Positions 39,862 through 57,151 of a stretch of DNA of 64,000 nucleotides are shown here, one piece after another. Where the stretch lies: NCBI GenBank assembly GCA_046563655.1, contig CM102289.1, positions 6,448,001 to 6,512,000 on the forward strand, given 5' to 3'. Origin of the DNA: Yuukianura sp. NJ FZ-2021 (Eukaryota). The position numbers and the translations under genes were made by a program. The stretch's first letter is position 1, and each line of letters opens with the position of its first letter. The notes beneath the pieces were generated by a model, which saw nothing but the letters and a program-made list of their open reading frames with translations, was not told the origin of the DNA and ran no database searches.

Positions 39862-41114
39862 CTAACGTAGTTGCTTGAGCATAAGTGCATTGCTAATAGT
39901 GTAGTTCGCAATTGCTGCAATGGATTTTCGTACAGCACTTTTGTCCAGAAAGTAGAACGACCCACAACGAATTCGACATTGTCTCAAGGAGCTTACACTT
40001 TTCTGGATAAATTTACGTTCCATGTCGGTGGTGTATCGGTTAGGTTTCACATCGCGAATGACTTTTCCCGCCCTTTCGAACAGTGTCATGCCAGAGTTTG
40101 CAATGGCAATCCAGAATATGGCCATTGTGAGAGAGACGACGCAAATGACACAGGCAATGAGCGTCGTTTTCGTAGTAATAAACAACGCGAACCCTAATGA
40201 ACTTAGGATAACAATGAGCATATTGGATGCCGTTAACAGTATTTCATAACATTCACTTTGCATTTCTGAAAGAATATACACTACCCGGTAACATCTAATT
40301 CTCTCCATTGGTGACGTAGACTTTGAGCGTCGTAGTTGTAGCAAAACCGCCGAAGTAATGCAGACAAACGGAAGAATAATCATAGAAACTTTGAGCCATT
40401 TAACAAAAGTAAGAGCGACCAATCCGGTTACAGCAATGTATATTACTATGAACAATGTTACTAAAATCGGTGTTAGGACTGTGCAGGAAAAATGTTGACA
40501 AAAAGAGCGACCAGAACAAGAAAGTAATGCGTAGAGGTCGTTGTAGAAAAGTGTGGTGGAAATTATGACCAATGGAACGCAGTATTTTCCAAGTTTACAA
40601 AAGGCGCTAGACACTGAGCCAACGACATCAACTTCATGACTTTCCGGTATTAAGTAGATTCCTAAAATTTTAAACCAAAATTTTAATACTTCCAAACTTC
40701 CTTTCCTTTCCAAATTTCAGCCTTCATTATTTTAAAAGTTAAAAGTTGAAAGAAGTTACCCTTTCGATGCTTTCCAATTTGGAGAAAAGTGTTGACAAGT
40801 TGTAAAGTTTTAGCTTTGTTTTTTACCGTGTCAATATCTATTACGATGTCCGCAAATAAAACTCCACATCCCCAAAGAATAAACAGAGTAAAAAGGTGGT
40901 TGAGTTGGTAGTAAATATTTAATATGGCCGCCAAAATTGTGCAGAAAATACTTACTGCATCAAACAGAAGTACAACTGTAGATCCAATTGCGTAGCGGCG
41001 AGAGCTGTCAAGCCCAAAATGTTCAGAAGAGCTTGATACTAAAGGACTCTGATAAGTACGATGAGATTCCCTTTGCGAATCAAACAGCAGTTTCCGACTT
41101 ACTTCTGACAACAT
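39862..41114 (-). CDS. Putative 7TM chemoreceptor (gustatory/odorant receptor superfamily-like), ~384 aa, two exons (41114-40760, 40661-39862)
   Basis: A phase-1 98-nt GT-AG intron joins two hydrophobic ORFs in frame. Multiple TM segments; C-terminus RIRCGSFYFLDKSAVRKSIAAIANYTISNALM resembles the GR/OR TM7 region. Confidence 0.7.
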
Positions 41115-46618: not shown

Positions 46619-47425
46619 TTACTTTTTAGCATTAATATTGTCAATCGCAAACTGTCCGAAAACTTTGGCTCCCTTGTCATTTACTTCATCGTAGTTTTTG
46701 ATTTCTTTCTTGAGTTTGTTGTAGTAAGCAAATACTTTTTGAAATGGACTCAACTTAACTCCAGTGGCCTCCATCGTACTCAGAGACGACATGATACTGA
46801 AGTCTGCAATTGTTAAAGAGTCTCCCGCCACATAACTAGTTTTGTCCAAAATTTCATCCAGCACGCCAAGAACTTCATCCAGTTTAGCAACAGCCTGTTG
46901 ATTGACTGGTTGACCGGAAAATATGGCAGGGTACTACAACAAAATCAATGGAAACGAGTTACAAGTTAATATTTTTTTCAAAATTGGAAAACAAAAAACA
47001 GCCCTTACATATGCCTTTTCAAATTCGCGGTAGAGACTTGTAATGTCAAAAAAGAGGAGGCGGTCGACCTGTGCCCTTTCCTTAGCTGATTTTGGATACA
47101 AACTGTCGTTTTTGCCATAAGCATTTGCTAGGTACATCATAATTGCTCGACTCTCGGTTAATATAAATCCATTATCATTGATTGCTGGAACAGTACGCCT
47201 AGGATTCACCTACAAAAAAAAATTTCATTGAAATAAAAACAATCAAAAAACTTAAAATCAAGAAATTTTATTAGAAAAAGTTACTTTGGCATATTCTGGC
47301 TTAAGATGCTCTCCTTTGAAGAGATCCACTTCCTTGATGTTAAGCTTAATTCCAAGAGCTTCCGCTGTCATAAAAACAGCACGACAGTGGGTACAGCCAA
47401 AAAATCCAAAACAATCGATAGTCAT
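46619..47425 (-). CDS. Glutathione S-transferase, Delta/Epsilon-like, copy 1 with CTHC at the active-site position (three exons)
   Basis: MTIDCFGFFGCTHCRAVFMTAEALG...GEHLKPEYAK|VNPRRTVPAINDNGFILTESRAIMMYL...YVAGDSLTIADFS. Confidence 0.93.
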
Positions 47426-47788
47426 TCTTGGAAAAAAAGCGGAAAAACCTAAACTTGTGGTAAAATGTTAAGTTAATTCAGGGTAGAATTTAAGTCCAGA
47501 TCGACCAGGACTGACTGACATGAATTGCAAAATGCAAAAACAGTAAAATGCACTCACATCTTTTACTTTTGCTGGAAATATTTTTTCAGAACTCAAGTCC
47601 CAAGTCGCCTGATTCTTTAACTGCGTATGCAAAATTCTCAACAACAAACAATTATTTATCTAATCTTGTGTTCACAATGCTCAAATACTGCCGCCCACAT
47701 TGAAAAATTGAAAGGTTGAAACAACAAAGGTTCAAGGTTTCAAAATTATTGAATTATTTAATACAAACTTCGAAATATTTTTGTCACA

Positions 47789-48602
47789 TTATTTTTTGGC
47801 AAAGATGTGGCTTGCAAACTGCCCAAAAGCTTTAGCTCCCTTGTCGTTTACTTCGTCGTAGTTTTTGATTTCTTTCTTGAGTTTGTTGAAATAAGCAAAT
47901 ACTTTTTGAAATGGTCGCAGCTTAACTCCAGTGGCCTCCATTGTGCTTAGAGACGACATGATACTGAAGTCTGCAATTGTTAAAGAGTCTCCAGCTACAT
48001 AAGTAGTTTTGTCCAAAATTTCATCCAGAACGCCCAGCATTTCATCTAGTTTCGCAACTGCCTGCTGATTGATTGGTTGACCAGCAAATATGGCTGGATA
48101 CTACAAAAGACAAAAAGAAATAAGTCATAAGTTATTTTTTTTCAAATTTTGGAAAACAAAAAATTTGAAAGTACTTACATATGCATTTTCAAATTCGCGA
48201 TAGAGACTTGTAATGTCAAAAAAGATGAGGCGGTCGACCTGTCCCCTTTGCTTTGCTGGTTTTGGATACAAATTGTCATTTTTACCGTAAGCGTTTACGA
48301 GATACATCATAATTGCTCGACTCTCGGTTAAGATGTATCCATTATCGTTGATTGCTGGAATAGTACGTCTAGGATTGATCTACAAAAAATTAAATTGCAT
48401 CAGTATTTCAAAGAAAAAAATCAAAAACTTGAAATTGAAAAATTTAATTATAAAAACTCGCCTTGCCAAATTCCGGTTTAAGATGCTCTCCTTTCATGAG
48501 ATCTACTTCCTTGATGTTAAGCTTAATTCCAAGCGCTTCCGCTGTCATATAAATAGCACGACAGGGGGCACTGGGAATAAATCCATAACAGTCGATAGTC
48601 AT
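47789..48602 (-). CDS. Glutathione S-transferase, Delta/Epsilon-like, copy 2 with canonical SAPC (three exons; first intron GC-AG)
   Basis: MTIDCYGFIPSAPCRAIYMTAEALG...GEHLKPEFGK|INPRRTIPAINDNGYILTESRAIMMYL...YVAGDSLTIADFS. Confidence 0.93.
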
Positions 48603-49092
48603 TTTGAAAAAAAAAAACACCGGAAAATGCAAACTTGTGATAAAATGTTATGTTATGTTAAGTTAGGGTAGTAGGAATTTAAATTCAGAACAGAACGACA
48701 AGGACTGAACTAAATCGGAAAGTGCAAAAAAAGTAACCTACATTTACACCTTTTTATTTTTCTAGAGATAATTTAGGCTAAAAATCAAATCTCAAATCGC
48801 ATGAATCTTCGAACTATTATGTGTGCAAAATTCCTAACCGAAAACAGTTATCTAATCTGGTGTTCACAAATCCATACATGGCGTCACCCACATTGAAAAA
48901 TTGAAATGGAATGAACTGGATTATTTTGAAATAGGCATTTGAACAGTCACGCGAATAAAGTCAACTGATAAACAGATAACTTGTAATTACTAAATTTTTA
49001 GTTGAGTAGATGTATACGGGATGACCTAAGAATTAATGACTAACTCAAACCAAATTAAAGTTTAAGTTAACAAGAAAAAATTTGAGATTTGA

Positions 49093-53751: not shown

Positions 53752-56700
53752 ATGCAAGTGCTCTTAATAATTTCAGCCATTGTTTTGGCAAGCGCAAAAC
53801 AACACACCGAAGGTATGTTTAATTTTGAAATTTATTTTGACACTGCAGGGAAGCTTTTTAAGGAAATTTTTTCTATACTAAAAATTTTTCATAGACTTTG
53901 ATTGCTGGACTCTTCCAAACGGAGACTACAAAAATCCGGCCGATTGCGCATCATTTTACCAATGTTCTGGTGGAAACGCATACTTACGACCATGTCCCGC
54001 TGGTCTCCTGTTTAACGAAAAAAATGGAGTCTGTGATTGGCCATCCAATGTCGACTGTGAAACGGATTCAGAACCTGCATCGACCACAGTTGCAGCGGAA
54101 CATCCAACAACTGTACAGGCTGACTTCGATTGCTCTGGAAAACCAAACGGAAAATATCCAAATCCTCAGAACTGCTCCACATTTTACAAATGTTCAAATG
54201 GATATGACTATCTGTATGACTGTCCAGCAAATTTAGTATTTAATCCAAAGACGCTCGACTGTGACTGGCGGGAGAATGTTCCATCTTGTTCTGGACATCC
54301 AGAACCAACAGTTCAGCCATCCACAACAGTGGCTACAGAAATTCCGACCACAACTGAAGTTGCTACTGACGCTCCACCTACTCCTGAGCCATCGACGGAA
54401 GCTGAAATTCCAGAGACAACCGAGGCTGAAATTCCAGAAACAACTGTAGCTGAAATTCCAGAAACTACTGAAGCTGAGCTTCCAGAAACAACGGAAGACG
54501 ACTCTTCTGATCAAACAACGGAAGACGGTTCTACTGAAGAAACAACTGAACATGGTTCTTCTGAAGAAACAACAGAAGACGGCTCGTCGGAGGAAACAAC
54601 TGAAGCTGAAATTCCCGAAACAACAGAAGCTGAAATTCCAGAAACAACGGAAGATGGCTCTTCTGAAGAAACAACTGAAGATGGTTCTTCTGAAGAAACC
54701 ACCGAAGATGGGTCTTCCGAGGAAACAACTGAAGCTGAAATTCCAGAAACAACTCAAGCTGAAATTCCCGAAACAACCGAAGCTGAAATTCCAGAAACAA
54801 CTGAAAATGGCTCTTCTGAAGAAACAACTGAAGATGGTTCCTCTGAAGAAACCACCGAAGATGGCTCTTCCGAGGAAACAACTGAAGATGGTTCTTCCGA
54901 AGAAACCACCGAAGATGGCTCTTCCGAGGAAACAACTGAAGCTGAAATTCCAGAAACAACTGAAGCTGAGATTCCAGAAACAACCGAAGCTGAAATTCCA
55001 GAAACAACTGAAAATGGCTCTTCTGAAGAAACAACTGAAGATGGTTCTTCTGAAGAAACCACCGAAGATGGCTCTTCCGAGGAAACAACTGAAGCTGAAA
55101 TTCCAGAAACAACTGAAGATGGCTCTTCTGAAGAAACAACTGAAGATGGTTCCTCTGAAGAAACCACCGAAGATGGCTCTTCCGAGGAAACAACTGAAGA
55201 TGGTTCCTCTGAAGAAACCACCGAAGATGGCTCTTCCGAGGAAACAACTGAAGATGGTTCTTCTGAAGAAACCACCGAAGATGGCTCTTCCGAGGAAACA
55301 ACTGAAGCTGAAATTCCCGAAACAACACAAGCTGAAATTCCAGAAACAACTGAAGATGGCTCTTCTGAAGAAACAACTGAAGATGGTTCTTCTGAAGAAA
55401 CCACCGAAGATGGCTCTTCTGAAGAAACAACTGAAGATGGTTCTTCTGAAGAAACCACCGAAGATGGCTCTTCCGAGGAAACAACTGAAGCTGAAATTCC
55501 AGAAACAACTGAAGATGGTTCTTCTGAAGAAACAACTGAAGATGGTTCTTCTGAAGAAACCACCGAAGATGGCTCTTCCGAGGAAACAACTGAAGCTGAA
55601 ATTCCTGAAACAACTGAAGCTGAAATCCCAGAAACAACTGAAGCTGAAATTCCTGAAACAACTGAAGCTGAAATTCCAGAAACAACAGAAGGCGGGTCTT
55701 CTGAAGAAACAACCGAAGATGGATCGTCTGAAGAAACAACCGAAGATGCCTCTTCTGAGGAAACAACCGAATCTAACCTTCCAGAAACGACAGAAGATGA
55801 CGGAACTCCAGACCCAACGCCTGAGCAACCATTTGATTGTACTGGAAAACCAGACGGAGACTATCCAAATCCTGAGAACTGCTCCACATTTTACAAATGT
55901 TCAAATGAATATACCTTTTTGTTTGACTGTCCAGCAAATTTAGTATTCAATCCAAAGACACTCGATTGTGATTGGAGGGAGAATGTGCCATCTTGTTCTG
56001 GTAATCCAGAACCAACAGTGCAGCCATCCACTACGTTGGCTATAGAACATCCATCCACAATTGAAGCTACTACAGACACTCCAACAACTCCTGAGCCGAC
56101 GACGGAAGCTGAACTTCCAGAGACAACTGAATCGGAAATTCCAGAAACAACTGAAGCGGAAATTCCAGAGACGACAGAAGTAGAAGAGGGCACTCCAGTC
56201 CCAACGACTGAGAAACCGTTTGATTGTAATGGGAAACCAAACGGAAAATATCCAAATCCTAAGGACTGTTACACCTATTACAAATGCTCAAATGGGTACG
56301 CCTATCTCCATGACTGTCCCAAAGAACAAGTTTTTAACCCGGAGACATTTGCTTGTGACGACTTGGAAAATGTACCATCATGTCAGGCCGGGTCAACTGA
56401 GGTTCCGACAACACCGGAGCCAGCAACCACCGAGGAAACAACTACTACTACAACTACCGAACAACCGACCACGACTGTCACAACGGAAGAGCCAACTACG
56501 ACCAACACGACTACAACGGAAGAGCAGCCTACGACAAATACGACAACAACGGAAGAACCAACTCCGACAAATACGACAATAACGGAAGAGCCAACTACAA
56601 CCAATGCAACAATAACGGAAGCTCCAACTACGACAAATGCGACAACGGAAGAGCCAACTACGACAAGCGAAGCACCGGTAGGGTTTAACTGCGACGGAAA

Positions 56701-57151
56701 GCCCGACGGTCTTTATCAAAATCCTGAAGATTGTTACACATTCTACTATTGTTCCAACGGTTACGACTATCTCTTTGACTGTCCAGCCAAGTTAGTCTTT
56801 AATCCTGACTTAGACCCACCCAAATGCGACTACTTGATCAATGTGCCATCATGTCAATCGGGAAAACCTGAACCTCCGACTACTGCAGCGCCGACAACAA
56901 CCGAGGCACCAGATAATACAACAACAACAGGGCGACCAACTACGACAACAACAACAACGAAAGCTCCTGAAGGTTTTAGCTGCGCAGGGAAACCCAGCGG
57001 TCTGTATCCAAATCCAGCCAGTTGTACGACATTCTACAAATGCTCCAACTACATCGCATACTTGTACGACTGTCCCTCTGGTCTCCATTTCAATCCCAAG
57101 TTGCTCGTCTGTGATTGGCCATCCAATGCTAACTGCGTCATCAGCGCCTAA
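53752..57151 (+). CDS. Peritrophin / intestinal-mucin-like protein with six CBM14 (peritrophin-A) domains, ~1105 aa (exons 53752-53812, 53895-57151)
   Basis: Signal peptide [22 protein letters not shown] near 53642; six six-Cys domains of the form FDCxGKPxGxYPNPxxCxTFYxCSNG..CPxxLxFNP...CDW...C, separated by Thr/Glu-rich linkers. Confidence 0.95.
54393..55800 (+). repeat. Coding minisatellite with interleaved 24-nt (TEAEIPET) and 27-nt (TEDGSSEET) units
   Basis: Directly visible: actgaagctgaaattccagaaaca and actgaagatggttcttctgaagaaacc type units in alternating runs. Confidence 0.97.

Follow-up and report, generated by a model that had tools for sequence, protein, structure and literature searches.

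What becomes of a glutathione S-transferase (GST) when its catalytic serine is replaced by a cysteine? The question is raised by two neighbouring genes, A and B, in a 64,000-nucleotide stretch of the Yuukianura sp. NJ FZ-2021 genome (98.7 Mb in 22 contigs), which we analysed as a single window (G000:C7:6448001-6512000; positions are those of the window). Both genes encode Delta-like GSTs, lie in tandem, head to tail, on the minus strand, and are intact with three exons each, as predicted from homology and splice signals. Gene A carries the usual serine, gene B a cysteine. The original prediction for this locus, made from the letters of the DNA, was that gene B has switched from conjugation to dithiol redox, deglutathionylation or metal-binding chemistry.

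Exon 1 of gene B (47285–47425) encodes residues 1–47, comprising strand β1, the active-site loop, helix α1 and strand β2, with His40 kept. It is followed by intron 1 (47210–47284; 75 nt, GT-AG, predicted from homology and splice signals), exon 2 (47009–47209; residues 48–114), which completes the glutathione site and carries the GST_N domain, intron 2 (46934–47008; 75 nt, GT-AG) and exon 3 (46619–46933; residues 115–218 and the stop codon), which carries the GST_C domain, the H-site and a TIAD N-cap box. The product of 218 amino acids is interrupted by neither a stop codon nor a frameshift. Gene A has its exon 1 at 48462–48602, intron 1 at 48380–48461 (82 nt, GC-AG), exon 2 at 48179–48379 and exon 3 with the stop codon at 47789–48100 (placed by homology and splice signals); its product has 217 amino acids and its introns interrupt the same codons as those of gene B. 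Three introns of the pair are GT-AG; intron 1 of gene A alone has a GC donor, its counterpart in gene B having GT. In both genes, exon 2 matches Pfam family GST_N (27.8 bits, cut-off 20.9) and exon 3 matches GST_C (31.1 bits, cut-off 20.7), and exon 1 searched by itself stays below the Pfam cut-offs.

The two proteins are identical at 183 of 217 residues (84%; 36/47, 57/67 and 90/104 for exons 1, 2 and 3), and residues 125–204 differ at four positions (76/80 identical), so that the common exon structure and the near-identity over much of the C-terminal exon, both noted earlier, are borne out. Some 300 bases before the gene and some 100 after it were copied together with it, making a duplicated unit of ~1.2 kb. 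The upstream region of gene B (47426–47713, minus strand) was duplicated along with the gene and is homologous to that of gene A (48603–48906, minus strand). Each start codon is preceded by a TCAGT word (47518 in B, 48708 in A) and each stop codon is followed by ATTAAA, which resemble an arthropod initiator and a polyadenylation signal, respectively, a word match being no proof of function.

Directly downstream of the pair lie two tandem MFS transporter genes (PF07690; 42348–43669 and 44561–45885, minus strand), and directly upstream lies a multi-exon lipase gene (PF04083, PF00561; 49093–50907, minus strand). Further out, an open frame of 1089 codons (53882–57151, plus strand) encodes chitin-binding domains of the peritrophin-A type (PF01607, matched within the first 173 amino acids) parted by a long acidic Thr/Glu repeat array, and is peritrophin- or mucin-like. 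An intronless, hydrophobic frame of 284 codons (39862–40716, minus strand) has a weak Pfam match to 8xMP below the cut-off and looks by eye like a chemoreceptor-type membrane protein.

The active-site loops read YGFIPSAPCR in A and FGFFGCTHCR in B, exactly as originally read. Ser11 of the SAPC motif of gene A is AGT (48572–48570), and Cys11 of gene B is TGT (47395–47393); together with Thr12, His13 and Cys14 (47386–47384) it forms a CTHC motif at 47384–47395 on the minus strand.

We checked these codons against short-read contigs from three runs of sample S1 and one run, X5, of another organism label. The S1 runs may be the assembly's own source, and they test for assembly error, not for spread within the species. 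Among the 40 of 182 differences listed for the S1 contigs, none falls within 47384–47401. One contig is identical to 47378–47662 without a single difference. A contig of the second haplotype begins at the same base and has 28 other letters and 17 gaps across 47378–47662, mostly in the upstream region of gene B, its first listed difference being at 47408; by the logic of a 31-mer graph, the 30 bases holding CTHC would be common to both haplotypes. Contig X4 record 20 (47135–47713) bridges the site with long flanks, and run X5 covers parts of gene B outside 47162–47401, a segment that includes CTHC. The CTHC codons are thus matched by short-read contigs, in both haplotypes, and assembly error is excluded. 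The chance of an identical loop in the two haplotypes is 0.15–0.42 under neutrality, which is weak evidence of constraint. At 47713–47784, between A and B, 70 letters are replaced in the second haplotype by 477 different ones.

Gene B could still be an unexpressed or decaying copy, and its branch in the tree described below is twice as long as that of A (0.11 versus 0.054). However, the frame is intact, the introns are GT-AG, the flanks with their TCAGT and ATTAAA words are conserved, and six of the seven coding SNPs listed for gene B are synonymous, the remaining one restoring the residue of A at position 147. For codons 16–209, the comparison of A with B gives a dS of 0.42 and a dN of 0.054 (dN/dS 0.13). 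Outside the loop, gene B is under purifying selection, and with this ratio at this synonymous distance and mostly synonymous SNPs it is an old, constrained copy, neither fresh nor dead. That B is unexpressed or decaying, or its loop an artefact, is therefore very unlikely.

Residues 6–13 (47387–47410) hold six of the 28 amino acid differences within residues 1–209. When the differences between A and B are placed at random, the best 8-residue window reaches this count with P = 0.011, confirming the clustering that had been noted in the loop. At the nucleotide level, the loop has seven nonsynonymous differences and no synonymous one. From the background nonsynonymous rate, 0.95 would be expected (P = 6e-5, with no correction for choosing the window), and from the synonymous, neutral rate 6.1 (P = 0.41). 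The cluster is therefore beyond chance for a constrained protein, yet it evolved no faster than neutral and is not proof of adaptive change. Since the loop rate matches the neutral rate, relaxation has to be weighed for this part of the protein, and with A and B alone, two sequences cannot separate it from selection.

Judged by outgroups, gene B is the derived copy at Tyr6>Phe, Ser11>Cys, Ala12>Thr and Pro13>His, and positions 9 and 10 are ambiguous; four of the six loop differences are thus clearly its own. Over residues 1–209, nine differences are derived in B, seven in A and 12 are ambiguous. Cysteine is one of eight nonsynonymous single-base neighbours of AGT, and histidine one of six of CCC, which speaks for selection; the 1-in-8 argument is post hoc, and is weakened in that the site was chosen because it is a cysteine. 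Gene B has cysteines at positions 5, 11 and 14 only.

How unusual is Cys11? To place it among relatives, we surveyed 201 distinct N-terminal loops from 290 proteins, dropping alignments that start after residue 16 of A. Most of the sample comes from two lists of matches, the top 150 of 534 and the top 120 of 1770, and it leans towards canonical members. Position 11 is serine in 194 of the 201 loops and cysteine in none (seven are not serine), which puts a 95% upper bound of 1.5% on the frequency of Cys11, valid only for such a canonical-leaning sample. Position 13 is proline in 187 loops and histidine in none, and position 14 is cysteine in 159. Cys14 is therefore ancestral; Cys11 alone is new, so that the CxxC arose by the gain of one cysteine. 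A glutaredoxin-like CxxC had been proposed as newly created here: the CxxC is present, but its second cysteine is the ancestral one and the motif is CxHC, not CP[YF]C.

In metagenome contigs, a DNA pattern for Delta helix 1 found 87 loci, of which 10 are GSTs (six distinct sequences), all with serine. Within the organism's own genome, which gave 22 GST_N matches, the six other GST loops that we read are SAPC, SPPT, SPPS, SQPC, SSCS and an Omega-like CPYA, and the CTHC loop pattern occurs at one place. The same genome was searched by exon for a source of the CTHC loop or a third copy of it; the matches were A, B and more distant paralogs only. A micro-inversion was considered as a source of the loop; by eye, the letters do not fit. 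The nearest other Delta-like paralog (L003 1385–2350, G000:C2 near 3965300) has canonical SAPC and NPQHTIP motifs, an intron inside the Cys14 codon and an extra intron in its last exon. Two tandem, divergent GSTs on the same contig (L012 and L017, G000:C2 3957400–3960000) have SPPS and SPPT loops.

No full-length close ortholog was found; of the 1770 matches of the profile search, the top 120 do not exceed 54% identity to A. Searching exon 1 against longer proteins gave one candidate, and an exon-1 profile gave seven short proteins, all with serine. The nearest relative, P0003, is 71% identical to exon 3 and is without an N-terminal domain; its locus is not among the 596 pattern matches scanned. 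A phage search and an Atlas search of GST_N clusters added nothing. A full-text literature search, which took in few subscription journals and no supplements, returned no natural Delta or Epsilon GST with Cys for Ser, and the accessible parts of PMC3995644, PMC4195677 and PMC9953322 contain nothing on such an enzyme. Alignments in supplements, for example of 10.64898/2026.07.24.740637, could hold a precedent.

To which class does gene B belong? Class membership in Delta is set above about 40% identity, and the best full-length matches are 47–52% identical. Delta chains (3VK9, 1PN9, 7RHP) lead both the PDB sequence lists and the fold list. In a tree of 70 rows, drawn without Omega or glutaredoxin rows and rooted at the midpoint, A and B are sisters (support 100/95); next to join them are the C-terminal fragment P0003 (100/99) and, one step deeper, P0206 with its SAPC loop (91/94); the branches leading to B and A measure 0.11 and 0.054. 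The pair stands among unnamed sequences, outside a 15-row clade (96/97) with the named insect Deltas, and the deep branches are weak. Nesting within the named insect Delta clade was not recovered, and for this reason we call the genes Delta-like. The Delta-like scaffold of the original prediction is upheld by sequence, PDB and fold matches together with the tree.

Omega GSTs have about 250 amino acids and their cysteine near residue 35; gene B has 218 amino acids and its cysteine at 11. No chain named Omega, DHAR or glutaredoxin is among the 54 PDB matches of exon 1 or the 52 of exon 2, and no glutaredoxin is among the Pfam or PDB matches of exons 1–3. Gene B does have the Cys-GST feature of a cysteine at the N-terminus of helix 1, the position expected from Omega GSTs and glutaredoxins as had been proposed, but the accompanying CP[F/Y/W]x motif of Omega and other Cys-GSTs is absent from its CTHC. 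By its proposed mechanism gene B would work like an Omega or Lambda GST, but it is not a member of these classes, as motif, length and sequence affinity all fail. The SxP motif of Delta GSTs, with Ser11, is present in A and absent from B (Cys11, His13). Gene B comes from the Delta-like group, yet it fails two Delta signatures, Ser11 and His52.

An ungapped alignment of exon 1 with structurally characterised Delta GSTs places Cys11 onto Ser11 of 3VK9 and Ser34 of 7RHP, which establishes that it occupies the position of the catalytic serine. Over 217 residues, an Apis Delta protein can be aligned gap-free with both copies (102/217 identical), and the numbering of 7RHP, the honey-bee AmGSTD1 structure, is therefore transferable to A and B. 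In 7RHP, the Ser34 hydroxyl oxygen is 3.26 Å from the glutathione sulfur and 3.46 Å from the Cys37 thiol, and mutant S34A shows the largest loss in kcat, 4.15-fold, about a quarter being left (10.1101/2023.07.20.549922). With both distances taken over from 7RHP, Cys11 would face the glutathione sulfur and a Cys11–Cys14 disulfide would be geometrically plausible. We folded exon 1 alone; the model (pLDDT 87) has a strand at 3–7, a helix at 12–24 and a strand at 28–32, with Cys11 just ahead of the helix. Its best fold matches are Delta GSTs with an rmsd of 0.6–1.2 Å, none of the matches to this short model reaching E <= 0.001.

Gene B retains Leu35, His40, Thr53, Pro55, Glu66, Ser67, Arg68 and Tyr107. 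The superfamily motifs Pro55, Glu66-Ser67-Arg68 and the N-cap Thr155-Asp158 are all present (the cis conformation of Pro55 is taken from sequence), and six of seven H-site positions are equal in A and B. Phe100 and Ile103 stand where the Apis protein has Tyr and Met; their assignment to the clasp dimer motif of Delta GSTs (Tyr and Met) is our own mapping from PMC11274691. Apart from the loop and Ile54>Val, the G-site of B is that of A. In exon 2, B reads Arg51-Arg52 in place of the usual Gln-His, followed by Thr53, Val54 and cis-Pro55, and RTVP recalls the TVP segment of glutaredoxins. The arginine pair (47200–47195, minus strand) also stands at the matching codons in exon 2 of gene A, so both copies have NPRRT where NPQHT[IV]P is conserved. 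Among 185 aligned loops, position 52 is histidine in 172 and arginine in two, and this G-site histidine has been called absolutely conserved for glutathione binding (10.64898/2026.07.24.740637). The change in the G-site of this lineage thus predates the duplication, and as a control A is itself not entirely standard.

Compared with the Delta GSTs of Bombyx (3VK9), Anopheles (1PN9) and Apis (AmGSTD1, 7RHP), gene B likewise has His40, cis-Pro55, Glu-Ser-Arg and Cys14. It differs from them by Ser11>Cys and Pro13>His, and both copies differ by Arg-Arg for Gln-His at 51–52. Cysteine-type GSTs have the motifs CPFA (Omega), CP[F/Y]A (Lambda), CPF[C/S] (DHAR), CPWA (GHR), CPFC (mPGES-2), CPYC (Iota) and CPFS (CLIC); like B they place the cysteine at the start of helix 1 of a thioredoxin fold, and three of them, DHAR, mPGES-2 and Iota, resemble B in a second cysteine as well (PMC4138524). 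In contrast to them, B has neither proline nor an aromatic residue after the cysteine, its scaffold is Delta-like, and its cysteine is a recent gain, not ancestral.

The closest experimental analogue is poplar GSTF1 S13C (PDB 4RI7; PMC4274894), which has the identical swap at the identical position of a Ser-GST scaffold. This enzyme is a laboratory mutant of a plant Phi GST with one cysteine and unchanged neighbours, whereas B is natural, with a CxxC pair and a remodelled loop. The mutant carries a covalent glutathione (+305 Da) and is no longer active with six substrates of conjugation or peroxidase reactions; it gained activity with HED (1.1e3 per M per s), weaker than that of natural Cys-GSTs, and shows no dehydroascorbate reductase activity (PMC4274894). 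The proposal that Ser>Cys at the catalytic position can turn conjugation into thiol transfer thus has an experimental demonstration in this mutant.

On this analogy we favour, with confidence that is about evenly balanced, the reading that gene B is a functional tandem duplicate turned Cys-type GST, which would form a mixed disulfide between Cys11 and glutathione and so remove glutathione. Sitting where helix 1 begins and perhaps aided by the new His13, the Cys11 thiolate would attack the sulfur of a glutathionylated substrate; the substrate would leave, Cys11 would become glutathionylated, and a second glutathione would free the enzyme and yield GSSG in a monothiol ping-pong cycle. Natural Cys-GSTs likewise attack glutathione conjugates, become glutathionylated and are released by a second glutathione (PMC4138524). 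Ordinary conjugation should drop or vanish because Cys11 would be trapped as the mixed disulfide. The ancestral Cys14 would probably contribute at most a side-path or a protective Cys11–Cys14 disulfide; in DHAR isoforms with CPFC, the second cysteine forms a disulfide, maybe as an intermediate or as protection (PMC4138524). The H-site has hardly changed, so B would most likely act on glutathione adducts of the small molecules handled by sister enzyme A. His13 can be read in favour of selection, too: a histidine at the third CxxC position, as in DsbA (CPHC), raises the potential of a thioredoxin scaffold by 66 mV and gives a pKa of 4.2, although the same source disputes that such a histidine sets the redox potential (PMC4395160). 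By analogy with the poplar mutant, we consider it probable that B has thiol-transferase activity in vitro, and are less sure that this is its selected role.

Several observations count against the favoured reading. The loop rate is no higher than neutral. Proline follows the catalytic cysteine in the vast majority of plant Cys-GSTs and is missing from CTHC, and Beta-class Cys-GSTs still conjugate (PMC4138524). Cys-GST activity is not missing from the genome either, which already has the Omega-like gene with CPYA.

The main alternative, less likely though substantial, is that the loop was relaxed or reshaped for a new ligand. B would then bind ligands, or conjugate with a changed specificity, and tolerate Cys11 as an isosteric substitute whose thiol transfer is incidental at best. 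Besides the neutral rate of the loop, this is suggested by Drosophila GSTD2 and GSTD5 (Gly) and GSTD7 (Ala), natural Delta paralogs which, like B, lost the serine but did so without gaining a cysteine, the replacement being non-nucleophilic there and a thiol in B (PMC11274691). The activity left to AmGSTD1 S34A points the same way, and serine is not mandatory in plant GSTFs (PMC4274894, PMC6540824); Thr12 or Cys14 could take over activation, as has been considered for poplar GSTFs (PMC4274894), and the arginine pair had already altered the G-site of both copies. Yet the remaining G-site residues are kept as in A save Ile54>Val, cysteine is just one of the eight single-step outcomes of AGT, and in the poplar mutant the cysteine is glutathionylated and conjugation blocked, which makes an inert Cys11 unlikely (PMC4274894). 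Phi GSTs of dual activity with a nearby cysteine are also known (PMC6540824).

The dithiol chemistry of the original prediction, a Cys11–Cys14 disulfide cycle acting on protein or small-molecule disulfides, is improbable. It would find its model in E. coli Grx2 (CPYC), a dithiol CxxC enzyme of the GST superfamily and fold (PMC2757866), and the third-position histidine of B resembles that of DsbA (PMC4395160). The CxxC is predicted at the start of helix 1, and the corresponding side chains of 7RHP are 3.46 Å apart (10.1101/2023.07.20.549922). We found, however, no close sequence relationship to Grx2 or DsbA; B keeps the H-site of a small-molecule Delta GST, the ancestral Cys14 needs no redox explanation, Cys-GSTs mostly work as monothiols, and GSTs have rarely been seen to deglutathionylate proteins (PMC6540824, PMC4138524).

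Metal binding is the weakest arm of the original interpretation. Absence of proline after the catalytic cysteine is linked to Fe-S binding in glutaredoxins, and no proline follows Cys11; the clustered Cys, His and Cys of CTHC might then hold Cd, Zn, Cu or an Fe-S cluster for sequestration. No further ligands were gained, however, the three cysteines of B being those at 5, 11 and 14, and the glutathione site is otherwise intact; cis-Pro55 is kept, and a cis-proline has been proposed to keep metals from binding at a CxxC (PMC2757866). We give a metal site scarcely any credence.

The Cys11 variant of gene B is real, intact and rare among the sampled relatives; its mechanism would be that suggested by the experimental analogue. 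If the loop is merely relaxed, B just adds another unusual paralog to the Delta class and is of modest interest. A fuller version of the favoured reading, which we hold only tentatively and think doubtful as a whole, is that one duplication on the arthropod Delta scaffold gave a glutathione-adding Ser enzyme and, with nearly the same H-site, a glutathione-removing Cys enzyme whose His-tuned CxHC centre joins one new cysteine to the ancestral Cys14. A Cys-GST would thereby have arisen independently and recently, with selection maintaining it. The usual account of GST evolution runs from Cys to Ser to Tyr (PMC6540824). Natural switches within a class are recorded from Cys to Ser, on the Cys-class scaffolds of plant Lambda (SPFA) and fungal Omega (SPY[C/S]) enzymes (PMC4138524), whereas Ser to Cys is known from the engineered mutant (PMC4274894). 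A natural Ser>Cys in the main arthropod detoxification class, beside a Ser sister of 84% identity, would provide a pair in which to ask what minimum of changes makes a deconjugating enzyme out of a conjugating one, and what the conserved, unexplained cysteine of the Delta SxxC motif can do.
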